From an uncultured Methanosarcinales archaeon (GTDB lineage: Archaea; Nanobdellota; Nanobdellia; Woesearchaeales; GW2011-AR9): a stretch of DNA of 64,000 bases. The stretch spans positions 472,705-536,704 of the forward strand of contig CAYFJV010000001.1 in NCBI GenBank assembly GCA_964343575.1. Direction: 5' to 3'. Numbering within the stretch: the stretch's first letter is position 1; each line of letters starts with the position of its first letter. This document shows, one piece after another, positions 1,521 through 57,378 of the stretch. A model generated the notes under the pieces. It was not told the DNA's origin. It worked only from the letters and a program-made list of their open reading frames with translations, and searched no databases. The translations under genes were made by a program, and so were the position numbers.

Positions 1521-4070
1521 TTAGCCAAAAGAGGAGAGGCCCTTCTGAGAACTCTTTTTGAAAAGTTCATCCTCTGGGATGCCAAGGACATGTAAAATTG
1601 GTTCAACCGCAGGCAAGAGTTGTTTGTTAAGATAGTAATCGACATCATAACTCTTCTTCTCTTTCTTAAGCTCATCAAGGCGCTTAGCTTTGTCGCGGAT
1701 TAGACCCGTTCCTTCAGCAACCACATACTCAATGAGCATTCCTGTAGAGATTGGATGGCCTTCTTTTTTCATACGTTTTGCTACTGCCACATGTGGACTA
1801 AGCACCTTGTAAGAATCGAGTGGACGAGTAAGCTGCATTTTGATAGTCATTTGCTCAAGAGGGACTCTCTTTGCCCTTAGATCTTTAATGAGCTTTCTTA
1901 GAAAATTGAGCGCTTGCTCATTTTTCTCTTGCATGATTAGTTCGATAAAAGTTCTTTGCGCAGCTTTTGCAAACTTGCTCCAATTTCTACGCACCGTCTC
2001 AAAACCGACAATCTTTACTTTGTTCTTCTCATCAATAAGAGCATACTTCTTTTTTGCTCCACGCTCACTCTGCTTACTGGCAACAAAGAGCGCATGTGGA
2101 AAAAAACCTTCAAACTCTAACTCCATATGTCCTGGAAGATCTTTATTGATTTTGTCCACGAAATCGTGTGCTTGCTTTTGCGTTTTTTTGTTAAGAGCGA
2201 TCATTACACTGTCAGTATCAGAATAAATTACTTGAAAACCTGCAGCTTCTGCTTCTTTGATCACATCTTTGATATAATATCTTGCGTAAGCTGTAACTGA
2301 CCTGGCTGCATCCTTACTATACCATCTTGCCCCATAAAATCCCAAATAACCATAGAAGGAATTGGCGAGCACTTTGAGTGCATAGAGTCTTGAATCGATA
2401 AGTGTTGTATCTTCTTTTTTTGCCGCTTTTCTTTTTCTTTCCTTCTTGAGTTGCACACGCATTTCAATAATATCACCAAGTACCTTTGGAATCAGTGCAG
2501 TTTGTTTTGGATCTATCCATAACTTGTGTTCTGGTACTTGCACGGATCCCCTCTTTCTCTCTTTATGCAAGCTCTCTCTAGCCACATTGTGCGAAACAAT
2601 AATGGTGGGGTAAAGAGAGAGAAAATCAAAAACAACAACGTTCTTGTAAAAGTCTGGTTTTGGCTCGAAGACAAAAGCTCCTTGCACGGAGATACCCATT
2701 CGTTCTCGTATGACTCTTTCAGGGGGCTTGTTCGGGTTGATGAGGTTGAACTCGTCTTCTCTTTTGAGAAGGTAGCTTTCAACTAACTTTGAAAACTTCA
2801 TGCGAATCATATCATTGAGAGTGATATCAAGAAGACGGCAAAACTCAAACATAGGGACGATGAGTTGTTCACAGATTTTGTGGGAGAGATAGGCATCTTT
2901 AAGGTTGTACTTTGCAAAGTTGCTCAGCTCTTCATCCTTTTTTTGATCCCAAGCATCTGCAAGACCAGCAATATTTACTTCTACCTTCTTCTCATTGAGT
3001 AAAAGAGAGGACACGTTGTCAAGGGAATAGCTCTCTATTTTCCAATCTTTACCAAAAATATTTCTTACAAATTTGAAGGTGTCAATATGTGGTCTTCCAG
3101 TAATGGTTGCTGCCCCATTGCTGAGGTGTGCTCGTTTTTTGATTTTTATGTCGCTGTTGTCTAAGGCAATTGGAAGAGAAACTTTGTGCATCTCTGCTCG
3201 TTTCTTGATGTAAGGTAAATCAAAAGCATCTGAGAAGTAGCCCGTAATGAGGTCAGGGTTGAATTCATTTACGAGCTTTGCAAATCTCTCAAGCATTTCT
3301 GCCTCAGTTTTTTGAAATTCAATGTACTTGTGCTCTGTTTTGAACTTTTTCCAACTGAGCACTTTCTCAAATTTTTTTGTTCTTCCTGTTTTTGTTTTCT
3401 CCTCTCCGTGAACAGCAATCATAAGAATCGCATTTTTTTGCATATCAATTGCTCGCTCTTTGTTGTAGGTCTCTATATCAAAACCCAAAATTTTGATGTT
3501 TTCTGTAAAGTGCTGATCTTTCTTTTGGTCATTTTTGGCGAGCTTTGTTTTTTGGGAGAGAAAAGTTTTGCATTTTCTTTGATCTTTCTTTTGGTCTTTA
3601 CTTGAATCTGTTTCTTTTTCAAACTCCCCTTGTGCTTCCAAAAGAAGCGTTGGTGTGATCTCCTTATCTCTAAGATATTGTCTTGTTACAGGAATGTCTG
3701 CCTCATAGAAAGTGAGCCCTTTTCCTTTGAAGTGTTTAAGCAGGCCGAAAATTGTTGCAGGATGGTTAAGATAAAGTTTCCAAAAGGTTTGCTCTTGCGT
3801 AAAAAGTACTTTTTTTTCTTCTTCCCAAGAGAGAATTTTTCCAGTTAGTTCTTTTGTTTGACCCTTCTCTTTTATGCTGCAGGAGAAGTCTTGGAGGGCT
3901 TTTTGGAGTTTTTTGGTGTCGACCCCTTTGGTCGCAAGGTAGCAATAGGGCTGGAACTCTTCTTTTACGCAAACTTGCTCACCTTTTGGAGTCTTTCCAT
4001 AGAGCAAGATAAAGGTCTTTTCTTGCTCTGTGAAGTAGTCCAAGTCAAGGGCAAAGAATTGGAGTTTCAT
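1521..4070 (-). CDS. polB: family B DNA polymerase with 3'-5' exonuclease
   Basis: FDIET (ExoI), DFLSLYPTII, KVLANSFYGY and YSDTDS motifs; start moved to MKLQFF. Confidence 0.95.
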   Translation of the reverse strand: MKLQFFALDLDYFTEQEKTFILLYGKTPKGEQVCVKEEFQPYCYLATKGVDTKKLQKALQDFSCSIKEKGQTKELTGKILSWEEEKKVLFTQEQTFWKLYLNHPATIFGLLKHFKGKGLTFYEADIPVTRQYLRDKEITPTLLLEAQGEFEKETDSSKDQKKDQRKCKTFLSQKTKLAKNDQKKDQHFTENIKILGFDIETYNKERAIDMQKNAILMIAVHGEEKTKTGRTKKFEKVLSWKKFKTEHKYIEFQKTEAEMLERFAKLVNEFNPDLITGYFSDAFDLPYIKKRAEMHKVSLPIALDNSDIKIKKRAHLSNGAATITGRPHIDTFKFVRNIFGKDWKIESYSLDNVSSLLLNEKKVEVNIAGLADAWDQKKDEELSNFAKYNLKDAYLSHKICEQLIVPMFEFCRLLDITLNDMIRMKFSKLVESYLLKREDEFNLINPNKPPERVIRERMGISVQGAFVFEPKPDFYKNVVVFDFLSLYPTIIVSHNVARESLHKERKRGSVQVPEHKLWIDPKQTALIPKVLGDIIEMRVQLKKERKRKAAKKEDTTLIDSRLYALKVLANSFYGYLGFYGARWYSKDAARSVTAYARYYIKDVIKEAEAAGFQVIYSDTDSVMIALNKKTQKQAHDFVDKINKDLPGHMELEFEGFFPHALFVASKQSERGAKKKYALIDEKNKVKIVGFETVRRNWSKFAKAAQRTFIELIMQEKNEQALNFLRKLIKDLRAKRVPLEQMTIKMQLTRPLDSYKVLSPHVAVAKRMKKEGHPISTGMLIEYVVAEGTGLIRDKAKRLDELKKEKKSYDVDYYLNKQLLPAVEPILHVLGIPEDELFKKSSQKGLSSFG

Positions 4071-4179
4071 GAAGGGTTTTAGATCTTCTTTTCTTTTAAA
4101 GATTTTTCTTTGCTTTTTGGCTGAAAAAAAACATTTTTTCTGGCTAGATTTTATAAAAAAATCAATGAATTTATCCATT

Positions 4180-5256
4180 GTGGAAGCAGAGCTTGGAGAA
4201 TATGGCATGATTGGTAGAAGTGGACCTATGCTTCACTTATACAGAGAAATTGAAGTTATTACTTCAGCAGAGGAAAGTCTTTGGGCACCAGTGATTATCC
4301 AAGGAGAAAGCGGAACTGGGAAGGAATTGGTTGCTCAGGCACTCCACAGGTATGGAGCTCGTTCTGGAAGAAGATTCGTCGCTGTAAATTGTCCTGCTAC
4401 TCCCGGACCACTCATTGAGTCTGAACTTTTTGGTTATACCCCAGGTTCTTTTACAGGAGCAAACCCCAGAGGAAAGAAAGGAATTTGTGATTTAGCCAAT
4501 GGGGGAACTCTCTTTTTAGATGAAGTTGCAGACATGTCCCCAGCAATGCAGGTAAAACTTTTGCGTGTTCTTCAAGAGGGAAAGTATAGAAGGATTGGCG
4601 AGCAGACTGCAAAACATGATCTTGATGTTCGTTTGGTGGTTGCTTCTAGCAAAGGTCTTAAACAAGCTGTTAGGGAAGGAAGCTTCAGAGGAGACCTGTA
4701 TCACAGAATTAGTGGCTTTACTCTTAAAGTTCCAGCTCTTCGAGAGAGAAGAAGTGATATCCCCTTGCTTGCGGACTATTTCTTGGAGAAGGCAAGCCGA
4801 GATTTACGTTTCAGCCAGGATGCAAAAGAAGCACTTGCGGCATATGATTGGCCAGGAAATGTAAGGCAGTTAAGTGTAATGACTAGAAGCCTTGCAATTA
4901 GAGCCAGAGCTTCTCAGAGAGAAGAAATTGGAGAGGAAGAAATATTGCAAAACTTTGATGATGGTGAAGAAAATTATCCCGAAGAAAGATTAGAAGGCTT
5001 TCTTGGGAACACCATGGAAGTTTTTTTCTCTCAGCTGAGAGGGAGAGTTATTCAAGGAGACTTTAAAAGAGCAAAATATCTTGCACATGCAGCAACCCTT
5101 TATCATGCCTTAGAAAAAGGCGGAAATGTGACAAGGGCTGCAAAACGGTTAGGAATACAGGGCCCCAATTTTAGAAGAACGGCGAAGGTTCTTGCTCGAG
5201 AAACACAACTAGGAGTTAATGTTATCAACCTTTGGAAGAAACAAAGAGAAGAGTAA
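4180..5256 (+). CDS. sigma54-interacting AAA+ enhancer-binding protein (NtrC/PspF-like, no sensory domain) with Fis-type HTH
   Basis: GESGTGKE, ESELFG, GSFTGA, LFLDEV, FRGDLYHR, WPGNVRQL, GNVTRAAKRLGI; start uncertain (4165, 4180 or 4207). Confidence 0.92.
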   Translation: MEAELGEYGMIGRSGPMLHLYREIEVITSAEESLWAPVIIQGESGTGKELVAQALHRYGARSGRRFVAVNCPATPGPLIESELFGYTPGSFTGANPRGKKGICDLANGGTLFLDEVADMSPAMQVKLLRVLQEGKYRRIGEQTAKHDLDVRLVVASSKGLKQAVREGSFRGDLYHRISGFTLKVPALRERRSDIPLLADYFLEKASRDLRFSQDAKEALAAYDWPGNVRQLSVMTRSLAIRARASQREEIGEEEILQNFDDGEENYPEERLEGFLGNTMEVFFSQLRGRVIQGDFKRAKYLAHAATLYHALEKGGNVTRAAKRLGIQGPNFRRTAKVLARETQLGVNVINLWKKQREE

Positions 5257-5497
5257 AACGCCCTATTTTCTTTCCATCCGCAAAGACTTTCTTTGAAAGG
5301 AAATCTCTCTTTTTTCTCACCCACACAGGCTTAGGACCAAACTCTTCAGAATCATACTGGCCCTCATAGATCACAAGCTCTTCGAGTGTGTCACAATCTC
5401 TTGCAATCGCAATTATCTTGTAGGTTTTTCCTTTGAAATGTTTGTAAAGTGCTCCAACTTTAATGGGACTTTGTTCAGGAGATGTTTCTTCTTGCAT
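5225..5497 (-). CDS. DUF1653-family protein
   Basis: YKHFKG, ELVIYE and VWVR pattern. Confidence 0.85.
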   Translation of the reverse strand: MQEETSPEQSPIKVGALYKHFKGKTYKIIAIARDCDTLEELVIYEGQYDSEEFGPKPVWVRKKRDFLSKKVFADGKKIGRFTLLFVSSKG

Positions 5498-5528: not shown

Positions 5529-6095
5529 TCAGGCCCTTCTCCTTAGAGATTTAAGAAGGTAATTATCGGTTTTCTTTCCTTTCTTTTTTGTGCTTGTTTG
5601 GCTTGCATCGGTTTTATCAAGTACCACTTCTGTATCCCCTGACTGCGCAGTGATTTGCTCGTGATCATGATCCTCAATAGTGAGCCCTTCTGTGAGTGAG
5701 CTTAACTGGATAAAAGCATCTTCCAAATCGTAATCTTCTAGATCTAAGGGCTGCCATTCTAAAGAAAGTTTGTCTTCTTGCACTCTTGGAATTACTTGCA
5801 TTGCAAAATGAGGAATACTTTGTCCTGCGCCAAGTCCATTTTCAACTAAGATATTTGTTCCGTGAGCTTGCAGCCCATCAAATAAAGAGACAGCGATCAT
5901 GTTGGCAAGTGTTGCCATTTTTGCAAAAGTTTGTTTGGGTAGCTGCTCCAAGATAGTGAAGTGTTCTTTTGGAATTATGGTAATTTGTCCTGGAGTGTAG
6001 GCTCGATCTGCAATGTAGGCTATGAGCTGCTCATCTTCGTAGATGATGCTTGGGTTGTCCTTCCCCGCTACAATTTGACAATAATCACATTCCAT
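5529..6095 (-). CDS. HIT-fold protein with degenerate triad
   Basis: CDYCQI, IIYEDE, IIPKEH, GQSIPHFAMQVIPR. Confidence 0.85.
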   Translation of the reverse strand: MECDYCQIVAGKDNPSIIYEDEQLIAYIADRAYTPGQITIIPKEHFTILEQLPKQTFAKMATLANMIAVSLFDGLQAHGTNILVENGLGAGQSIPHFAMQVIPRVQEDKLSLEWQPLDLEDYDLEDAFIQLSSLTEGLTIEDHDHEQITAQSGDTEVVLDKTDASQTSTKKKGKKTDNYLLKSLRRRA

Positions 6096-6106
6096 CTTCT
6101 AAAATC

Positions 6107-7195
6107 TTAAAATAAATCAGCAAGATCTCCTTTTGCCTTTTTGTTTGTGTGCTCATCTGCACTCTGTGTTTTCTTTTTCACTACTTTCTTCTTAGCTACT
6201 TTCTTTTTACTTGATTTTTTAGTAATTTTGACTTTCTTTGTTTTTGTTTTCTTTGCTTTTTTTTTGCTTGTCTTCTTCACTTTCTTTCTCTTTGAAGTCT
6301 TCCTAGCTTTCTTGTGCTTATGCGTGTTTGCATCGATATCAATGTCCAACTTTACTTTGTGACGTTCTTCAGAAGTAGGCATCCCGATATGTTCTCGCAT
6401 AACATCACTAAGACCCTCAACTGCTCCTTCGACAACTTCTTCAAAAACTTCCTCTGCAACTTCTTTGCCCACCTTTTTGATGGTTTCTTTTGCAGCTTTG
6501 GCAAACTTTTTGACTTTGCTTGGAGCTTCTGGTTTGGCTTCTTGCTGTGCTTGCTCTGTTTTCTGGTTTGCTGGACTAGTTACTGAATCATAAAGTGCTG
6601 CTGCTGCTTTCTCCTTCTGCTCTTTTTTCTCTTCTTGCTTTTCTTTGGAAGGTAATTTCTTTTGTTTTGAGAAGTCCTCATGCTTTCCAAGCAGTTTGTT
6701 GAGCTGCTTTTTCACCGTAACTTTGATATTCTCTCGTTTCTCTTGTTCAAGAGTGTGCGCTTCAAGCTCAAGAAGCTTATCTCCCTCTTTTCGAGGAATA
6801 ACATGAAGCATTACGTGCTGCGCTCGCTGTCCTGCTGCTGCGCCATTGGCAAGAAAAACACTTGTTCCTTCTGCACGCAAAGCCTTAAGCTGAAGATGAG
6901 AAATCTCTTTTGCAACAATGAAAAGGTGCTCAAGCACTTCTTTTGGAATCTGAGGCAAGATTGCATAATGTTGTTTTGGAAGAATAAGACAATGGCCTTT
7001 CGCAGCGGGTTTAATATCAAGAATCACCAGGGTTGTTTCGTCTTCATAGATCTTTCTGCTAGGAATCTTTCCTTGAATTATTTGGCAGAAAATGCACTGT
7101 TGCTTTTGTAGCTCAGCAAGCTCTTCTGGGCTCATATTCTTGAGCCGCTCTTGTATTTCTTGCTGCTGCTCTGGCGTGAGCTGTGAGAGATCCAT
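6107..7195 (-). CDS. HIT-fold protein with degenerate triad and long Lys-rich tail
   Basis: CIFCQII, GHCLILPKQH, GQRAQHVMLHVIPR; C-terminal KKTSKKKAKK-type repeats. Confidence 0.85.
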   Translation of the reverse strand: MDLSQLTPEQQQEIQERLKNMSPEELAELQKQQCIFCQIIQGKIPSRKIYEDETTLVILDIKPAAKGHCLILPKQHYAILPQIPKEVLEHLFIVAKEISHLQLKALRAEGTSVFLANGAAAGQRAQHVMLHVIPRKEGDKLLELEAHTLEQEKRENIKVTVKKQLNKLLGKHEDFSKQKKLPSKEKQEEKKEQKEKAAAALYDSVTSPANQKTEQAQQEAKPEAPSKVKKFAKAAKETIKKVGKEVAEEVFEEVVEGAVEGLSDVMREHIGMPTSEERHKVKLDIDIDANTHKHKKARKTSKRKKVKKTSKKKAKKTKTKKVKITKKSSKKKVAKKKVVKKKTQSADEHTNKKAKGDLADLF

Positions 7196-7270: not shown

Positions 7271-8098
7271 TTAAAGAAACTCTTGCACATTCTTGAAGTG
7301 AAGCTTGGTGAACTCTAGAAAAGGAAGACCTTTTTTTTGTACTTGTTTGAGTGCTTCTTTTACATGAGTGCTTCCTTTTGGGAGAGGAAATCCTGCACGC
7401 TGGCTAAGATACTCCATTTGCTCTAAGGCAGCTGCTCGCGCCAGAATGGATGCTGCAGCAACTTCAATATACTTATGTTCTGCCTTCGTCTCAATGATAT
7501 CTCCCACAGTGCAGCCAGGATACTTGTCCACCACATGCGTGCCTGCTCCCAACTGCTTGGCAACTTTTTGATGCATCTTGTTGAGCATCTTAGTTGTACC
7601 ATCGTGTTTTTGTATACGGTTGTATTCTTTTGGGAGAAGTGAGACTATGTGGTTGTCAGTGATTTTTTTTATTTCCTGCGCAAGCGTTGGAATGTTTGTA
7701 TCAGTAAGCGTTTTGCTATCGGCAACACCAAGCTGGAGAAGCTTTTCTCGAATCTTTTCGTCTGCTCGCACCGCAGCAACAATAATACCTCCAAAGGTGT
7801 CTCCTTTAAGTGTTTCATCACTGCCAATGACCCAGCCAAGCTCTTTTCGAAAAGAGATCTGTTTTTGTTCCTTACCAATGCCTGCATGTGTGAGCTCCTT
7901 TCTGGTTTTCTCCACGCCTTCTTGGTTTCCTTGCAAGAGTAGCGTTCCTGATTTGAAAAGAATAAGTAAGACTTTGTTTTTTATTCCTCTGCTGTAGCGC
8001 AGCTGTTCGTGTTCTGTTTTTATTCTTCCCTCCTTGTACTTTCCTTTTTCTAGGAAGGGAATGAGTTTCTCTGGAGTGACTTGCTTAAAAGTGACCAT
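7271..8098 (-). CDS. rnhC: ribonuclease HIII-like protein
   Basis: N-terminal TBP-like segment (FKSGTLLLQG), IGSDETLKGDTFG, DSK, VAAASILAR, KLHFKN. Confidence 0.8.
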   Translation of the reverse strand: MVTFKQVTPEKLIPFLEKGKYKEGRIKTEHEQLRYSRGIKNKVLLILFKSGTLLLQGNQEGVEKTRKELTHAGIGKEQKQISFRKELGWVIGSDETLKGDTFGGIIVAAVRADEKIREKLLQLGVADSKTLTDTNIPTLAQEIKKITDNHIVSLLPKEYNRIQKHDGTTKMLNKMHQKVAKQLGAGTHVVDKYPGCTVGDIIETKAEHKYIEVAAASILARAAALEQMEYLSQRAGFPLPKGSTHVKEALKQVQKKGLPFLEFTKLHFKNVQEFL

Positions 8099-8139: not shown

Positions 8140-8733
8140 CTATCTTTTTCTCTCTTCAGGACATTGCTCAAAAACATTCTGGTGCAAAGAATAATCAGTG
8201 AGGAGAAAGGGAAGGTCTACTTCATCAGAATTTCTGATAGGAATAACGGTTCGTAGTCCAGTAATCTCTTCTCCCACAGCAGCATAAAAAGGAATTTCTC
8301 TCCCATCAACTTCAAAAGTGTAGACTTGTGTTTGCACCCTGCAAACTCTTGAGATTCTTGTCTCCCCAACTGCATCCCTTTCTAATTCTCCTTGATGGAA
8401 ATACATTCCAACTGCCTTTCCAAAAAAGTCTTCTGGGTTGGCCCGAATTTTTTCAAACACAAGACCATTAGCATGCTCTTGCAAGCCATAAAGATCTTCC
8501 TCTGGGGCGGTATCAGTAGGTGCTTGAATAGAAACACCTCCACCATGATCGTGCCCTCCAAGTAAGCAAGCCAGGTTTGGCACATAAAAATGAAGAAATG
8601 TTGCAAAGGATACTCCTGCGGCGGCTCCCGTAAAATCTGCAACTATCCTAGCAACGGGAGAACTATCCAAAAGGGACTCTAAACGGGAGAGGACTCCTCC
8701 ACTAGTACTCGAATAACTTTCTCTGATCTGCAT
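8140..8733 (-). CDS. hypothetical protein with an N-proximal hydrophobic segment
   Basis: ORF filling the gap between the two RNase H genes; start uncertain. Confidence 0.55.
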   Translation of the reverse strand: MQIRESYSSTSGGVLSRLESLLDSSPVARIVADFTGAAAGVSFATFLHFYVPNLACLLGGHDHGGGVSIQAPTDTAPEEDLYGLQEHANGLVFEKIRANPEDFFGKAVGMYFHQGELERDAVGETRISRVCRVQTQVYTFEVDGREIPFYAAVGEEITGLRTVIPIRNSDEVDLPFLLTDYSLHQNVFEQCPEERKR

Positions 8734-9370
8734 CTGCTTGCACCTTTTTGTAAGAAGCCCAGCTCTTTCTAAAATGCTTCGCATGTTTTTGATAATATTT
8801 CTTGAGAAAGTCTTGCGTCTTTGGATCGCTCATATAGCCAGAGCCACAATCAACACCAGTCTCTTCTTTGATCTTTTCAACTTGCAAATCTCGAATAACT
8901 TTAGCAACAATTGATGCCGCTGCAACCACAGGATACTTCATATCTGCCTTATGTTCAACAATGAATTCTGTACTTTTCTTTACTCCTTCACTGACTCTGC
9001 TCAGAAGGTAGTCTTTATAGGCGGGAGGATTGGTACTTGGACAGTCCACATAAGCTTTGTTCGGTTTCAGCTCTGAGAGCATCTGCGCGCTCACCTCTGC
9101 TTCTAACCAATTAAGATTAAGGTTCTCATCTTCGTCAATTGCATGATCTATTGCGCTAGGCTCAACTACCTGAACACGAAAATCGAGCACCACTTCTCGA
9201 ATACGCTCGAAAAGCTCTTCACGAAGTTCTTTGCTAAGCAGCTTACTATCTTTAACGCCCATCCACTTGAGTTTTTGCTCCGCCTCTTCGTCTACAGCAA
9301 GCGCTACCATAACCATGGGTCCAAACACAGGCCCTCGTCCTGCTTCATCAATACCTACAGAGATTACCAT
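8702..9370 (-). CDS. rnhB: ribonuclease HII
   Basis: GIDEAGRGPVFGPMV, KDSK, VAAASIVAKV, GSGY, C-terminal PIP-like QRKLFEY. Confidence 0.95.
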   Translation of the reverse strand: MVISVGIDEAGRGPVFGPMVMVALAVDEEAEQKLKWMGVKDSKLLSKELREELFERIREVVLDFRVQVVEPSAIDHAIDEDENLNLNWLEAEVSAQMLSELKPNKAYVDCPSTNPPAYKDYLLSRVSEGVKKSTEFIVEHKADMKYPVVAAASIVAKVIRDLQVEKIKEETGVDCGSGYMSDPKTQDFLKKYYQKHAKHFRKSWASYKKVQADADQRKLFEY

Positions 9371-10514: not shown

Positions 10515-10695
10515 CTCTTTTTTTGCTCGGTGGCTTTAAAAAACTTATGGGTTTTCTTTCTTTTTTCTCTTTGAATCGTCACTGTGTTGTGACGTTAATA
10601 AGAATCTTTGAAGGTTTGTCTTTTTGTGTTTGTTTTCTGGTTAAAGAAAAATTTTGGTGAGAAAGTTTTTATAAAAAATGCTTTCCGAGAAAAAC

Positions 10696-11157
10696 ATGGC
10701 TTTAAGACGTTTTTCCTTAGAATATTTCTTCACAGAAGGAAGAAGAGAAGCCCTTGGTTTTGAAGTTACTCCAACAATGGTTTCCCTTCTTTACGCGCAC
10801 TACCTAAGAAGCTGGGGGGATGTGTATCAAAGACATTATGGTTTTGGGATTTGTGCAGGAGAGGTTGTCTCTGAAAGTCTTACTTTTGGAAGGGGAGATA
10901 ATAAGCTTACTGAGTTGAGAATTTATAAGGGAGATTGTTCAGCTCCTTCTTGGCGTTGGGAAAGAGAACGCCTTGCAGGAGAATTTACCGGAACATTTCC
11001 CGACTGGATTGCTGAAGATCTTACCGGTGTCAAAAGAAGATCAGTAGAAGTTCTTGAAAAGATAGCTAGAGCAGCCAGACTTGAGGGAAAACCTTATGCA
11101 AGAAGAGAAGCTCTTAAGGACTTGAAAGGCTTAGTTGCTTCTTTGCAATTTGCTTGA
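10696..11157 (+). CDS. hypothetical protein
   Basis: ORF with a TTTATAAA box about 25 nt upstream; AGA-rich Arg codons. Confidence 0.6.
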   Translation: MALRRFSLEYFFTEGRREALGFEVTPTMVSLLYAHYLRSWGDVYQRHYGFGICAGEVVSESLTFGRGDNKLTELRIYKGDCSAPSWRWERERLAGEFTGTFPDWIAEDLTGVKRRSVEVLEKIARAARLEGKPYARREALKDLKGLVASLQFA

Positions 11158-17935: not shown

Positions 17936-18589
17936 ATGACTTATTTCCACACAAAACAAAGAGTTTTCTTGGGCATAGATGAGTCAGGTATCGGAGGCGA
18001 TTCTTCTCGCCAGATTTTGGTGGGTGCTTTTTCTTCGGATGAGCGTTTAGTTTATTCCCACAAAGGAAGGTTGCTCAAAGCAAGAGATTACATTGCTTTA
18101 AGGGAAGCGGGTTCAAGTATAGAACCCCCAAGTTACGAGGTCATGCTTAATGAAGGTTTAGAAACTTTTTTCTGGGGAAAGAATAGGTCAGGCAGCCTTC
18201 CTTCTCAAATTGCTGCACATGCAACCATTGGGGAACTCATTATACATTGCGGAAGAGATACCTGCTTAAGCAGACTTGTGGTGTATGTAGATAGGTTCCA
18301 TTCAGACACTAAAGAAATTTTGGGCGAATATTTAGAAAGAAGAGGTTATGCTAGAACAAAAGGCCCCATTATTCATGTTATAAGGGGTTCTGATAAAGAT
18401 CAAAAATTAGTGAACTTTGCAGACATTATTGCCTTTCAAATTGGAGAGCTCTGCAGAAGAAAACAAGACACTTATCCGAGAAAGGTAACTTTCCCTATAG
18501 AGATTGATCCTCAGTTTCCTACTCTTGGACAGAGAGTAATTCTTCCAGATGGGGCCAAAAGAGAATTAGAATTGCTCTTAGCAGCTTAG
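17936..18589 (+). CDS. RNase H-fold protein (RNase HII/DUF3800-like)
   Basis: FLGIDESG, VYVD and FADIIA acidic motifs; start moved to MTYF. Confidence 0.55.
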   Translation: MTYFHTKQRVFLGIDESGIGGDSSRQILVGAFSSDERLVYSHKGRLLKARDYIALREAGSSIEPPSYEVMLNEGLETFFWGKNRSGSLPSQIAAHATIGELIIHCGRDTCLSRLVVYVDRFHSDTKEILGEYLERRGYARTKGPIIHVIRGSDKDQKLVNFADIIAFQIGELCRRKQDTYPRKVTFPIEIDPQFPTLGQRVILPDGAKRELELLLAA

Positions 18590-30788: not shown

Positions 30789-32735
30789 ATGTCAATTACT
30801 CTTGAACCTGAAACTCCAGAAAGAAAATTTCCCATGTATCATTTCCATGCCAGTACAGATGTGGGGCTTCAAAGGAGCGAAAATCAAGACAGATACTTAG
30901 CTGAGGGTTTGGCTGGAGAGCTTGGTCTTTTTGTTGTTGCAGATGGTGCTGGAGGTTACAAAGGGGGGGCGCTGGCTGCTCAAACTACGGTCGATGCTTT
31001 TCTCGAGACACTCAAAGAAGTAGTTGGGGAAAGTGATACGGGCAGAAGGTACTTAGAGGCAAGGGATGATTCTGCAGACTCTGATTTAGAGAGATATGTT
31101 CTTAGTAAAAAGCAAGCAGCCCATGTTGTTCTAGAAGGGAGCCGACGTGCTAGGCGAGATGTGCTTGCCCTACAAGCAAGTGACAAAGAGTTAGCAAATG
31201 CTTCATCAACAGTTGTTGTGGCTTGTCTTTACGAAATTCCAGAGGAAGAAAGGGTAAAGAGAGGACCAAGTGTGGGGGTTGCCTATGCTTGGTTGGGAGA
31301 TTCAAGAGCTTACAAACATGATTGTATAAAGTCAAAATTAGAACAACTCACAAGCGACCATGATGGAGCAACTTATTCTCTCTTAAAGAAGGGAATTGAT
31401 CCCAGAGAAAGTAGAGAAAATGAGAGAATGGCTAAAGACCATGCGGCACAAGGAAAATTAACCGCTTGTGTAAACATGGAAATGCCAGATCTCTTCGCAG
31501 ATGATCCAATCTTAGAGGGCGAAGGTTATGTTCACCATACCACATTGGGTTCAAACGAATCACTTCTACTTACCTGCGATGGATCTACAGACAAAACATA
31601 CAATGGAGAGCTTGAACGAATTTGTAATAGGAATACTTATGGGGGGGCTACTCAAACTGGAGACCTTCGAGAGATAAACAAAGAAATTCTTCATCTTGCA
31701 AATCAACTACGGGGGGGCCACGATAATATAACTACAATTGCAGTTACCGCAGACTACATTGGAGATGATAATGAGAGAAGAAAGCGAGAAAGAAGGAAAT
31801 GGGAGAAAATAAGGCTTCGTGAACTAAGAGAATATGCTCTTTTGTCAGAAGAAGTTGTCGATAAAGCTGCAGGCCAGATTGGGCGCCTCCAGAGAGATGT
31901 GGGAAAACTCACTCAAGCAAAAGAAGAGCTACAAGGTAACTCAGATCAAGCAGCTAAATTTAGTAGGGAGTGGAAGGAAGCGTGTGAGCAACGTGATGAA
32001 CAAATTAGGAAAGGTAATGAAGCCATTGCTAACCTCAACACGACAAATGCTGCGCTTACAGCCCAAATCGCTGAAGGTCAACGGCAATACACTCGAAGAG
32101 GAAGATGGTTAGGAGCTACAACTGCAGGATTTGTTCTGACAGGTCTTGTTGCCCTTGCTTCAACTGCAGGAAATCTGTATCAAGCACATCGACTCAATCA
32201 AGCAAGAGCTCTTGCTGCTCAGGGACTTACTGCAGAATCGTGTGAAAGTGCTCATCCTTGTCCAAAAGAACAAATTCCGGCAACTTATTGTGATGCTGAC
32301 GTTGCAGGTGCAATTGAGCCATTGCAAAGAAGAGTTACAGAATTAAATGGTCAAGTAAGCGACTTAGAATCAAGTAATGCTGCTCTTAGAAAAGCTGCTC
32401 CAACTGAAGTAGACTGTTCAGTTCCTTCTTTAGATGAACTTACTACAAGGGCAGATGTTCTTGCATGGTCTGAACAAGCTTGTTCTGCGACAATGGAAAC
32501 CCACACAATGGCAAGTGTAGCAATTAGAAATTATACTGCTGCCCACCAAAGAATCCCGGTTGCTGTTCTCGCAGGTGAGATTAATTGTGGGGAAGCGAGA
32601 GTAAGATACCAAGAGGTCGTAAGTGGACCTCTCTCAGCAGAGCTTGCACAAAATGGTGATGGCGCTGCCCTTATGAAAGGAGATTTTGACCGACAAGCAA
32701 AAGAAAATCTTGCAGTTGTATGTCCCGAAGAATGA
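30789..32735 (+). CDS. PP2C (PPM) Ser/Thr phosphatase with coiled coil, TM and Cys-rich C-terminal domain
   Basis: DVGLQRSENQD, VVADGAGG, WLGDSRAY, LTSDH, LLTCDG, GGHDNIT. Confidence 0.9.
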   Translation: MSITLEPETPERKFPMYHFHASTDVGLQRSENQDRYLAEGLAGELGLFVVADGAGGYKGGALAAQTTVDAFLETLKEVVGESDTGRRYLEARDDSADSDLERYVLSKKQAAHVVLEGSRRARRDVLALQASDKELANASSTVVVACLYEIPEEERVKRGPSVGVAYAWLGDSRAYKHDCIKSKLEQLTSDHDGATYSLLKKGIDPRESRENERMAKDHAAQGKLTACVNMEMPDLFADDPILEGEGYVHHTTLGSNESLLLTCDGSTDKTYNGELERICNRNTYGGATQTGDLREINKEILHLANQLRGGHDNITTIAVTADYIGDDNERRKRERRKWEKIRLRELREYALLSEEVVDKAAGQIGRLQRDVGKLTQAKEELQGNSDQAAKFSREWKEACEQRDEQIRKGNEAIANLNTTNAALTAQIAEGQRQYTRRGRWLGATTAGFVLTGLVALASTAGNLYQAHRLNQARALAAQGLTAESCESAHPCPKEQIPATYCDADVAGAIEPLQRRVTELNGQVSDLESSNAALRKAAPTEVDCSVPSLDELTTRADVLAWSEQACSATMETHTMASVAIRNYTAAHQRIPVAVLAGEINCGEARVRYQEVVSGPLSAELAQNGDGAALMKGDFDRQAKENLAVVCPEE

Positions 32736-39368: not shown

Positions 39369-40016
39369 TTAGTACACCCTAACTGCTCTTTCTACTTGAG
39401 GTTTTGTCCAACCCTGAGCTAATTTCCCATGCCTTCTGTCTACTTGACGATCATCTCCCAAGGTAATAGAAGATCTCAGAAGTTCATCAAGATCAACCGC
39501 ATCCCGAAGAACTTGTCTTGGATTAATTGGTTGATCTTCTCCTGGCCAACAAGCAACAATAAGATGCGTCTGATAGTTAGGTAAGGGATTTCCTTTGATT
39601 GCACCAGACCATCTTTGGTATCCTCTTGGAACAGGAAGAAACATAGAAGTTTCTTCTTCTCCCCAAGTCCTTGTCACACGCCCATTAGCATCGTTTATAG
39701 AGTATCGTGGAGTGACTATATCTCTAGCAGAATCTCCTGGTTTAACCATCGAAGCAGAAACAACTGGAGAAGCATAAATCTGCTCTCTTCCCCTTACTAT
39801 GTCGCTAGGCTTTTCTCTTTCAACCCACAAAGCAGTTCTAAGACTAACAGAAGGATAGATAAGATCACTTAGAGCCTCTCTCATCACTGCAGCTACGGGA
39901 ACGGCTTCTCGTCCTTTTGGATGTAGTACATAACCACGAACTTCAATGCCCTCTTGCTCCGCTGCTTCATAAACTGCATTCGTCCACTGACTTAATCTTT
40001 CCTGTTTTTTTACCAT
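39369..40016 (-). CDS. hypothetical protein
   Basis: 215-aa ORF with GGAG upstream; no family recognised. Confidence 0.6.
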   Translation of the reverse strand: MVKKQERLSQWTNAVYEAAEQEGIEVRGYVLHPKGREAVPVAAVMREALSDLIYPSVSLRTALWVEREKPSDIVRGREQIYASPVVSASMVKPGDSARDIVTPRYSINDANGRVTRTWGEEETSMFLPVPRGYQRWSGAIKGNPLPNYQTHLIVACWPGEDQPINPRQVLRDAVDLDELLRSSITLGDDRQVDRRHGKLAQGWTKPQVERAVRVY

Positions 40017-49352: not shown

Positions 49353-49614
49353 CTTTGGTCTAAAGTTAGAATGGAATGGCAGCACCGTGCGGCTTACTAA
49401 TGTGAGTGAGTACAAAGAAATCCCAGGGATCTCACGAGCTTTTGATGCTAACGCAAAGTTTATTCTAGCTTTTTTGTGTGAGATGCACAGTAGCAACGGC
49501 AAGCTCTACCGTGGATCAAATGTGATTGATGCATATTATGGTAAAGATGAGCCAAGCTTAGCTGATGAGATATGGAATAGTTTAAAACGCTGGGTGGCTA
49601 TTGCGTTTAAATGA
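49270..49614 (+). CDS. hypothetical protein
   Basis: GGAGGT upstream; ATGA overlap with the next gene. Confidence 0.6.
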   Translation: MTDYDIRLDAPVSEKIMQDLKLEQGFTNFGLKLEWNGSTVRLTNVSEYKEIPGISRAFDANAKFILAFLCEMHSSNGKLYRGSNVIDAYYGKDEPSLADEIWNSLKRWVAIAFK

Positions 49615-50006
49615 AATATTTAATCGTTGAAGATAGTGAGAGGGACGCTGAGGGGATTAAAAGAGTCCTAGAAGGAAGATTTGGAGATGGACTTGATATT
49701 CGCGTTTGTCTTTTATCTGGCGAAGTTGATGAAGATCCCGTTGCTGTTGCCAAGAATTTTTCCCCAAACCTTATTCAATTAGATGGGCTTGACCGCTATG
49801 ATGGGGGTGGTCCACGTTGTTTTTCTCTTTACGATGCTTTGCGAAGGGAGCTTCCTGAAGTAGAATGTATCATCCATTCTTCAGATTACTCGGTTGAAGG
49901 AACTGCAGGAGAGAGAGAAATTACTTACATGGCCAAAGATTCTTCTGGGGTCGCCGCTCTTTGTTCTTATGTTCAGAGAGTTATGGATGAGGAGAGTAGA
50001 GAATAA
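49611..50006 (+). CDS. stand-alone response-regulator receiver (CheY-like) domain
   Basis: LIVEDS, LIQLDG, IIHSS, YMAK. Confidence 0.75.
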   Translation: MKYLIVEDSERDAEGIKRVLEGRFGDGLDIRVCLLSGEVDEDPVAVAKNFSPNLIQLDGLDRYDGGGPRCFSLYDALRRELPEVECIIHSSDYSVEGTAGEREITYMAKDSSGVAALCSYVQRVMDEESRE

Positions 50007-51272: not shown

Positions 51273-51737
51273 TCAGGAGACTAAATCTTCGTTTCTGGGA
51301 GATGGCAAGAAAGCGTAAGGGCTTTTTGCTTGTGAAGGACCAGGTCTTTCTACTCTTGTTCCTCCTGGAACCCTTAGTAAATACCTCACTGAATCTGGCC
51401 CGGGACAGTGAGGAGAATCCGAAGAAAAAACGTAGCGATCAAAGCTAAATTCTCTTGTAGTTCCTCCATAAACTGGAGCTGCTGTCAGTTCTACATGGAA
51501 TGATTCATTTCCTTGGTCTAGTTCTAAAACTTTCATGCGAAGACCAGGTTGACAACTGCCATCAACTCCAAGAAGAAGCTCAATATATTCTCTGCCAGCA
51601 GAGATCTCTCCCGAGTCCTCTACTCTGTGATGAGTCAGATCTTGGAAAGTGGGAGACCAAAGAAGACCAGGTAATGTAGGAGATGAAGGCCTTCTTGTTT
51701 GTGTGATATATCCATCATTATGAAGCATGCTTGGCAA
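51273..51737 (-). CDS. hypothetical protein
   Basis: ORF only; start uncertain. Confidence 0.45.
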   Translation of the reverse strand: MPSMLHNDGYITQTRRPSSPTLPGLLWSPTFQDLTHHRVEDSGEISAGREYIELLLGVDGSCQPGLRMKVLELDQGNESFHVELTAAPVYGGTTREFSFDRYVFSSDSPHCPGPDSVRYLLRVPGGTRVERPGPSQAKSPYAFLPSPRNEDLVS

Positions 51738-56307: not shown

Positions 56308-57378
56308 ATGCAAATTACTCCCGAGATAAAGGCGCAGCTTGCTGAGCAAAAAAAACAGTGTATCTTCTGTAAATTGATTGCTGGAGAGATGCCAGCTAAA
56401 ACGGTTTTTGAAGATGATAAATGCATTGCTATGCTTGATATTTATCCTGCAATGAAAGGGCACACTTTGTTTATGCTCAAAGAACATTATCCTCTGCCAG
56501 CTTATGTTTCTGGTGAAGAATTTAGACATAAGTTCTCTCTGATTCCTGACTTGGTTGCGGCTCTTAAGAGCGCAGTTGTGCGCACCGGAGCAAATGTTTT
56601 TGTTGCTATGGGTGGTGTTGCGGGGCAACAAGCACCCCATTTTTTAGTACATCTGTTCCCTCGTGAAGTTGGAGATGGTTGGTTTAAGTACTTGTTTGAT
56701 CGAAACAAAGAAGGCTTGGATGAAAAGGGAAAGAGCATGCTTGCAAATAACATGCCCATTATGATGAATAATCATTTTGGAAGAAATCCTGCTGCTTGGC
56801 ATGTGGGTAAAGGCGATGTTCCTGCACACCTTGTAGCTGTGTATGAGCGTGACTTTGTCATTTACGAAGATGAGAAGGTACTTTGTGTTGCTCCTGAAAC
56901 AAGTGTTGCTAAAGGACACTTGGTTGTCTATAGTAAAGAAGAGGGGAAAGATGTAGAAAAGTTGAGTCAAGAAAGTAGCAGCCATTTCTTTTTTACAGGC
57001 TCCTTTGCTTCTACTGCAGTATTTGAAGGACTTGGCGCGCAAGGAACAAACATTATTCTGAAAAGTGGGGTTGCTGATGATAACCCAACTGGTCGCTTAG
57101 CTATGCATGTGATTCCTCGTTGGCAAAATGATGGGATTGATCTGCTTTGGCAGCCTTCACAGCCAAGTTATGATTTGGATTCGCTTGCTTCTAAAATAAA
57201 GGATGCAAGCTGGAAGGTGAAGTATGGCGGTACTTCTAAAGCTGAAGAAAAGAAAAAAGTAATCCCTGCCTTAGAGAAGAAAGTAGAGCGCATTGGCGGA
57301 GGTGTTGATGTAGGGAGTTCTAAGGGTAAGCATCGTGAAGAAATTTTGGCTGCGATGAAAAAGATTCGTGGTGCTTGA
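56308..57378 (+). CDS. tandem double HIT-fold protein with degenerate triads
   Basis: CIFCKLI...GQQAPHFLVHLFPR; second unit IYEDE...GTNI...RLAMHVIPR. Confidence 0.85.
   Translation: MQITPEIKAQLAEQKKQCIFCKLIAGEMPAKTVFEDDKCIAMLDIYPAMKGHTLFMLKEHYPLPAYVSGEEFRHKFSLIPDLVAALKSAVVRTGANVFVAMGGVAGQQAPHFLVHLFPREVGDGWFKYLFDRNKEGLDEKGKSMLANNMPIMMNNHFGRNPAAWHVGKGDVPAHLVAVYERDFVIYEDEKVLCVAPETSVAKGHLVVYSKEEGKDVEKLSQESSSHFFFTGSFASTAVFEGLGAQGTNIILKSGVADDNPTGRLAMHVIPRWQNDGIDLLWQPSQPSYDLDSLASKIKDASWKVKYGGTSKAEEKKKVIPALEKKVERIGGGVDVGSSKGKHREEILAAMKKIRGA

Follow-up and report, generated by a model that had tools for sequence, protein, structure and literature searches.

A gene for a sigma-54 activator (bEBP) was characterized in a 64,000-nucleotide stretch of the genome of a small, uncultured archaeon of symbiont type in the Woesearchaeales (contig CAYFJV010000001.1, positions 472,705 to 536,704), here called the window. 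Judged from its sequence, the 358-aa protein is a real and intact bEBP of type Ic, it is one of a recurrent archaeal set, and it is not accompanied by a full sigma-54 system in the archaeon. Transcription of the gene probably depends on the TBP and TFB of the archaeon. To our knowledge, bacterial sigma-54 is the single substrate of activators of the bEBP family. The explanation favoured here, tentatively, is that the protein could well be a constitutive effector that leaves the archaeon and engages the sigma-54 RNA polymerase of a bacterial host or prey. Coordinates are collected in Table 1.

Table 1. Positions of the features discussed (window coordinates unless a locus or contig is named).
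Feature	Position	Strand	Basis or remark
bEBP gene, input-less, 358 aa: AAA+ core, lid, helical linker, Fis-type HTH	4180..5256	+	
TATA-like box of archaeal type, TTTTATAAA, 31 nt upstream of the bEBP GTG start	4149..4157	+	sequence; genome-wide box peak
Walker A, residues 42-49	4303..4326	+	
L1 loop GSFTGA, residues 89-94	4444..4461	+	sigma-54-contacting motif in bacteria
Walker B, residues 111-115	4510..4524	+	
Sensor I region, ASS where ATN is usual	4642..4650	+	
Arginine-finger region, R170 and R176	4687..4707	+	
Sensor II WPGNVR, residues 224-229	4849..4866	+	
Predicted Fis-like helix-turn-helix, helices 317-323 and 328-341	5128..5202	+	below Pfam cut-off
Family B DNA polymerase (polB), left flank of the insertion	1521..4070	-	relatives align from this Met
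polB TATA-like box TTTAAAA, 30 nt upstream of the polB ATG at 4070	4094..4100	-	read from sequence
DUF1653 gene, right flank, convergent, overlaps the bEBP 3' end	5225..5497	-	
ECF sigma factor	G000 C1:541734-542348 = L066:3258-3872		some 5 kb beyond the end of the window
FliA-like sigma factor	L047:7788-8708		
Arg-rich proteins in the window (examples)	8143-8784, 10678-11157, 17936-18586, 30789-32732, 39372-40016, 49611-50003, 51276-51728		
Conserved twin Fis-HTH protein (fam04645)	L035:1147-1803; L012:2551-3204; L030:440-1039		
Short sigma-54-like proteins	L032:1513-2325, L033:41-742, L037:1082-1936, L038:1453-2391, L039:1495-2322, L040:1498-2280		

The activator and its insertion site

Pfam searches matched the protein to Sigma54_activat (E=1e-56) and to the AAA lid (E=2e-16). 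The Fis-type domain HTH_8 was matched weakly, at 16.5 bits for the whole protein and 18.6 bits for the C-terminal part alone, with a cut-off of 22. The top NCBIfam matches were NorR, NtrC and NifA, all far under the equivalog cut-offs. An AlphaFold model made from a 121-sequence alignment (mean pLDDT 88.7) has a helical C-terminal domain, in which the two helices listed in Table 1 are modelled at the HTH position with a pLDDT of about 80, and Foldseek with this model returned only bEBPs among the matches listed. Walker A, the switch Asn70, the GSFTGA loop, Walker B, both arginine fingers and the sensor II Arg were all found. Compared with 80 bacterial bEBPs, 65 of the 69 columns conserved at 85% or more were matched. 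A first-pass annotation of the window had described an intact sigma-54 activator, and this was borne out by the ATPase motifs, the loop and the conserved columns. Its list of kept motifs was accurate for Walker A and B, GSFTGA, the R-fingers and WPGN, but the Fis HTH gave a Pfam match below the cut-off. The four departures from the bacterial consensus are S156 (the sensor I Thr), I177, G179 and V233. The replacement at sensor I is conservative, and the Thr is kept in 50% of 24 archaeal homologues. Because of these four departures, sensor I among them, ATPase activity of the protein is not certain.

The AAA+ core starts about 10 residues past the TATA-supported start, so that the protein lacks an N-terminal input domain and resembles PspF, as had been proposed; PspF itself matches at E 2e-45. 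No signal peptide was evident. The best solved-structure matches were ZraR, NtrC4, FleQ and NtrC1 (AAA+ E 1e-59 to 1e-52; rmsd of about 2-3 A in most rows). In their full forms these proteins carry N-terminal regulatory domains, as is well known for ZraR and NtrC4, whereas the archaeal protein begins 10 residues before its core. PspF and HrpS are restrained by partner proteins, and no restraining partner of this kind was identified for the archaeal bEBP. Type Ic bEBPs (PspF, HrpR/S and LafK) are described as likewise having an AAA+ core, an L1 loop and a C-terminal HTH with no input domain (PMC3162934). In bacteria they share the genome with sigma-54 and its cognate promoters, whereas the archaeal protein has no sigma-54 beside it and is preceded by an archaeal promoter.

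TATA-like boxes in this genome peak at -25 to -34 of the starts. The GTG start of the bEBP gene is supported because its box lies at the usual spacing for the genome; for the ATG at 4165 the distance to the box would be too short. The gene had been described as divergent from polB behind a box; the orientation and the box are real, but the box at 4149-4157 was assigned to the bEBP gene because polB has its own at 4100-4094. The reported overlap of the 3' end with the next gene was confirmed and amounts to 32 bp (5225-5256). Among 731 genes the bEBP gene ranked at the 89th percentile for synonymous codon use, and its GC3 of 0.30 fits the genome. The 109-bp intergenic stretch contained only 7-nt A/T inverted repeats, and no operator-like repeat was found in it.

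In the same-genus genome G422 the genes polB, DUF1653, HIT and HIT follow each other in this order with nothing between, and no bEBP was seen in this 89%-complete genome. As G422 keeps the polB-DUF1653-HIT order, the bEBP gene is a single insertion in a native archaeal run, or else was lost from G422. The slot beside polB holds other, differing genes in several relatives. A functional tie between the bEBP and polB was rejected, since none of the 23 other polB loci of the family pairs them. Three HIT-like proteins are encoded in the window (5532-6095, 6110-7195 and 56308-57375), and two RNase HII paralogues lie near each other (7274-8098 and 8705-9370).

Search for sigma-54 and other bacterial parts in the host genome

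The genome (G000; 1.21 Mb, 6 contigs) is 95.1% complete and 0.6% contaminated, and encodes TBP and TFB. The sigma-54 domains PF04552, PF04963 and PF00309 and the RNAP alpha C-terminal domain gave no matches in this 95%-complete genome, and the controls were matched in the expected bacteria. A profile of short archaeal sigma-54-like proteins, described below, also found nothing (best E 0.16). The earlier expectation of a genome without sigma-54 was thus upheld by the search for rpoN. The remaining two PF00158 matches in the genome are Lon and MCM. Scanning of the two large contigs with the -24/-12 promoter consensus gave no exact site and 19 sites with at most one mismatch, compared to 16-22 in five simulations, which is the level of chance. 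The positive control of 80 bacterial loci gave 40 promoter matches against 13-18 simulated. With two mismatches the window alone gave 35 matches against 26 expected, and six of 100 shuffles were as high.

Other bacterial parts were present. The gene for a complete ECF sigma factor, which matched region 2 (E 8e-16) as well as region 4 (E 1e-12), and that for the FliA-like sigma factor each have a TATA-like box upstream. Two SLT transglycosylases, an M23 peptidase, a twin-Fis-HTH protein and two RelA/SpoT-domain proteins, one of them a full RelA/SpoT, are also encoded. One SLT transglycosylase gene lies directly upstream of that for the full-length RelA/SpoT (L083:11532-15317; G000 C2:241283-245068). 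Wall-degrading enzymes have been reported in these archaea (PMC9723730, PMC12352652). The sigma-70 factors of Woesearchaeota and Pacearchaeota (fam00359) were found in 39% and 38% of genomes in an earlier study that left their mechanism open (PMC8204110). They are, like the bEBP, a bacterial transcription part with an unexplained role in the same archaea. Sigma-70 region 2 was observed here in 151 of 401 genomes of the phylum and in none of four archaeal controls. Among genomes with a bEBP it occurred in 18 of 25 (17 of 22 vetted) compared to 132 of 375 others (Fisher p 4e-4, where kin are not independent). Two rows of the sigma-70 tally (G243 and G332) and one bEBP locus (L027, in G243) are from unpublished genomes, and no conclusion hangs on them.

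The ratio Arg/(Arg+Lys) was bimodal across the proteome, with about 205 Arg-rich proteins, mostly orphan. Of 181 Arg-rich proteins selected as lacking a signal, 173 were scanned as a set, and the remainder was included in other scans. No Pfam family was found for 124 of the 173; the matches obtained include the ECF sigma factor, the FliA-like protein, two HATPase domains, a Ser/Thr kinase and the M23 peptidase. The Arg-rich proteins may be a variable, host-directed gene pool. Composition was discarded as evidence on the bEBP: its R/(K+R) of 0.65 falls in the Arg-rich mode, but the median of bacterial bEBPs is 0.66. A short Ala-rich C-terminal pattern, chosen post hoc, was present in 16 of the 205 Arg-rich and five of 698 other proteins, and is reminiscent of ClpXP degradation tags (for example L042:14266-15117, L043:17304-18044 and L048:10453-10956). 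Beyond this pattern, which the bEBP does not have, no terminal signal was common to the 205 proteins. Two of the Arg-rich proteins in the window are a receiver-domain-like orphan, recognized by eye and with no Pfam match (49611-50003), and a PP2C-domain protein (30789-32732). Among 51 proteins scanned, mostly P-loop proteins, one T2SSE ATPase and one HerA-type match were found, and no member of the VirB4/VirD4 family at E 1e-8.

Recurrence, loop conservation and origin

The bEBP was matched at E 1e-15 in 26 of 401 genomes of the phylum, at 27 loci besides that of the window. Three loci were dropped, L017 and L023 on bacterial-looking contigs and L025 on a contig of 2.35 kb, and the vetted set comprised 25 loci in 23 of the 401 genomes. 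A family-wide search found a bEBP in 15 of 114 genomes, but in neither of the two in the genus, and added eight loci, one of them cut. L028 and L237 end at contig edges. Of the conditions that the first-pass annotation named as refuting its view, a one-off gene is contradicted by these counts and a chimeric contig by the native gene order around the insertion. That a bacterial fragment was joined into an archaeal contig during assembly or binning is extremely improbable, even though three of the 27 other loci lay on bacterial-looking or unverifiable contigs: both flanks keep the order of G422, the contig is 665 kb long and the GC3 of the gene fits, and homologues lie between archaeal housekeeping genes in independent genomes. 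Contigs in two archaeal bins are bacterial-looking and encode dynamin-like GTPases and a TolB-like protein (L224, G067:C21; L225, G340:C25). No archaeal marker was seen on either, and both are likely mis-binned.

Of the 24 vetted loci that include the 5' end, 20 have less than 60 residues ahead of the core, as do all seven added loci, compared to one of 78 bacterial loci. In three of the four longer proteins the N-terminal region gave a weak HTH match at best, and no receiver, GAF or PAS domain. The input-less form is thus the rule among archaeal bEBPs, unlike in bacteria, where it is reported for about 4-8% (PMC3162934). An in-frame start with a TATA-like box before it was seen in 18 of 27 loci (17 of 24 vetted), where 2.7 would be expected, and in four of the seven added family loci, compared to three of 78 bacterial genes; the two closest kin (L231 and L236) had no match with the pattern used. 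The archaeal bEBPs are lone genes beside those for AsnRS, archaeal primase, aIF5B, Trm1, SecY, L10e, Nmd3 and others. Neighbours vary, and no conserved neighbour or target gene was found among the loci compared. In five homologues the Fis HTH is replaced by a domain of about 200 aa, with no Pfam family in the three scanned (L008, L010, L019, L235 and L239). A weak Cro/Xre-like HTH is found in the N-terminal region of some archaeal bEBPs (L018, L020 and L026). Genome G379 has three diverged paralogues (L011, L030 and L031) with the loops GAFTGA, YVASSV and NTFTGV. The twin Fis-HTH protein is convergent to the bEBP in two of 27 loci (L012 and L030), which are unrelated to each other; its family was listed as confined to Woesearchaeota and present in 25.5% of them (PMC8204110 Table S3).

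Short sigma-54-like proteins of 230-330 aa were detected in six of the 401 phylum genomes. They match sigma-54 residues 272-464 and have a weak Region-I-like start, an HTH and an RpoN box (L033 ends early), with no Pfam core-binding domain. Elusimicrobiota also have similar short proteins. An activator working within the cell on such an archaeon-encoded protein is very unlikely: two of 25 bEBP genomes have one, and in G180 it is on the same contig as the bEBP, but the loop of the G180 activator is decayed (GIASNV), none was seen in the other 23 and none was found in the genome studied here.

In bacteria the L1 loop contacts region I of sigma-54 (PMC7175178). Exchange of the second residue of GAFTGA to Ser is listed as a tolerated change (PMC3162934). 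GSFTGA is reported as compatible with activity, and a GVATGV protein was predicted, without a test, to still activate (PMC4641369). GSFTGA was present in 16 of 80 bacterial control loci. When the archaeal loops were judged by the substitution rules given in PMC3162934 (L240 was read by eye), sigma-54-compatible loops were found in 16 of 25 vetted loci and six of seven added family loci, or 22 of 32. The incompatible loops (nine of 25 and one of seven, or 10 of 32) are of the xVATGV type in six loci and further decayed in four. In the loop columns of 24 archaeal sequences, retention of the bacterial residue was 0.54-0.83, compared to a core median of 0.92, which suggests that part of the archaeal family is relaxed.

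The closest kin, L231 and L236, have 38-47% identity to the bEBP and the loops GSFTGA and GAFTGA. All three proteins start with YGMIG (none of 199 comparison proteins), have a short lid of 31-32 residues (none of 189 measured proteins at 30-32) and carry a Gly-aromatic pair after the Arg finger (one of 199), features that were chosen after the alignment had been viewed. A four-member archaeal clade of another order (support 100/98; 44-59% identity) has the loops GAFTGA, GAFTGA, GSFTDA and GAYTDA, all tolerated, and a sigma-54-like fragment was found in only one of the four genomes. In another lineage of the bEBP's own family the core is intact and the loops are of the xVATGV type or decayed. 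Loss of the loop in orthologues, raised earlier as a sign against a sigma-54 role, is therefore true of that lineage but not of the closest kin.

The highest core identity to the bEBP was 56%, and the best of 7998 scored candidates from a 5.8-billion-protein set had 40-54% among the 120 listed. A profile search against 1.84 billion representatives gave mainly generic bEBPs and the query members themselves. A viral vector was considered and none was seen, the best segments of 79 loci on viral contigs having at most 50% identity. FastTree and IQ-TREE left the bEBP unplaced and gave 8-10 label changes. A single archaeal clade was obtained in none of 200 bootstrap trees. In AU tests one archaeal clade was not rejected (p 0.53, in comparison with a poorly optimised tree), and neither was the bEBP with the xVATGV lineage (p 0.81) or with L231/L236 (p 0.41), although the trees do not join these three. 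Two starred archaeon-bacterium pairs of one tree run were not starred in a later run. A recent one-off transfer from bacteria, one of three options put forward initially, became the weakest of them in view of this identity, the fitted codon use, the TATA box and the two kin with the loop; no near-identical bacterial gene was sampled, as nothing exceeded 56%.

The need of the trees for 7-10 label changes, which suggests several uptakes, fits transient cargo, that is, bacterial gene pieces which are taken up often, so that a bEBP fragment behind a TATA box drifts with little function. The patchy distribution within family and genus, the differing genes in the slot beside polB and the decay of some copies (L027 and L029) agree with this. 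It was nevertheless considered unlikely. The bEBP has kept 65 of the 69 conserved columns even though no sampled sequence exceeds 56% identity to it, archaeal clades whose members are 42-68% identical retain open frames and catalytic residues, and close kin were found again on 7 and 13 contigs. Random fragments would not yield the lack of a sensor seen in 27 of 31 loci.

Possible roles and their meaning

The repurposed DNA-binding ATPase of the first-pass annotation stands as a rival reading. The HTH would bind the archaeon's own DNA, and the protein would repress, loop or remodel TBP/TFB/RNAP without sigma-54, in the manner of TyrR. TyrR, DhaR, HupR and VpsR are precedents for a bEBP scaffold working without sigma-54. 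The archaeal TATA box and fitted codon use agree with such a regulator, as do an ATPase core that is better conserved than the loop and the family lineage in which an intact core is combined with xVATGV or decayed loops. The twin-Fis-HTH protein shows that this type of HTH has been taken up, and it adjoins the bEBP in two loci. We regard this reading as somewhat unlikely. In the four precedents GAFTGA is lost or broken, whereas the archaeal GSFTGA is intact, and sigma-54-independent paralogues in bacteria are described as losing the motif (PMC3162934), in contrast to 22 of 32 archaeal loops that are sigma-54-compatible. No conserved neighbour was found, and the intergenic stretch has only its short A/T repeats. 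The HTH is weak in the bEBP and replaced or absent in several homologues, and a sensor-less protein has no evident input.

Long retention of the loop in cells where no sigma-54 was found suggests that its target is the sigma-54 of another organism, and the bEBP would then most likely work in a bacterial host or prey. This constitutive effector, the third of the initial options, has gained circumstantial support. The bEBP would be expressed in the archaeon and, by analogy with PspF-type or truncated activators, would form ATP-hydrolysing rings without a signal. It would then get into a bacterial cytoplasm and there turn on sigma-54 promoters of envelope, motility or nitrogen genes, or jam the host's own activators. 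A model for the presumed activity is DctD250, an engineered, truncated DctD that is constitutive and promiscuous and acts on many sigma-54 promoters without a signal (PMC3844500). Both have a sensor-less AAA+ domain; DctD250 differs in being a bacterial laboratory truncation, also without an HTH.

An effector agrees with the lack of any partner found in the cell, where sigma-54 domains and the RNAP alpha C-terminal domain gave no matches and promoters were at chance, and with a loop retained despite deep divergence. It also agrees with the sensor missing in most archaeal loci, the archaeal promoters on bEBP genes and the varying neighbours with no conserved target. In the same genome are the ECF and FliA-like factors, the two SLT transglycosylases and the M23 peptidase. 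Other observations argue against it. The bEBP shows no evident signal peptide, and no delivery machine was seen among the 51 proteins scanned. An earlier study asks whether DPANN archaea have bacterial hosts and leaves this open (PMC8204110), and the parts of the literature consulted establish no bacterial host for the archaea discussed here. Ten of the 32 loops break the rules and loop columns are less conserved than the core, which fits relaxation. Four consensus positions, sensor I included, have changed, the gene is as patchy as expected of cargo, and the two closest kin lack a TATA match by the pattern used. Bacterial parts can also serve the archaeon itself, as illustrated by the full RelA/SpoT and the twin-Fis-HTH protein.

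In the effector reading the bEBP would be one item of a variable kit, to which the ECF and FliA-like sigma-70 factors of the same genome would also belong. It is possible, if doubtful, that the archaea of the Woesearchaeales and Pacearchaeales live on bacterial hosts and reprogram them by delivery of a kit of bacterial transcription proteins in stripped form. The kit would comprise sensor-less sigma-54 activators, short sigma-54-like proteins, and ECF and FliA-like sigma-70 factors.

Sigma-70 factors in Woesearchaeota have already been published, and the recurrent archaeal bEBP set was not found described. Automatic annotations already name the bEBP homologues. The main text of the sigma-70 study does not mention NtrC or two-component terms, and no effector role is proposed in the parts of it consulted; neither 'sigma54' nor PF00158 is listed in its family table, and a supplementary figure has a sigma-54 column (PMC8204110). 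The word 'sigma' is absent from the main text of a 2026 preprint on 208 complete genomes. No publication on archaeal bEBPs was found in a literature search whose coverage mostly excluded subscription journals.

The retention of sensor-less bEBPs under archaeal promoters in many small archaea leaves two explanations, an action of archaea on bacterial transcription or a new archaeal task for the scaffold. The hosts of the Woesearchaeota are described as an open question (PMC8204110) and the organisms are uncultured; the bEBP makes this question approachable by a sigma-54 reporter. Activation of sigma-54 by the bEBP would provide evidence at the level of function that archaeal proteins are tuned to the cytoplasm of bacteria, and it would suggest a likely role for the published, unexplained sigma-70 factors. 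If the reprogramming reading is true, the kit would be a cross-domain effector system, and its sequences would point to the hosts.
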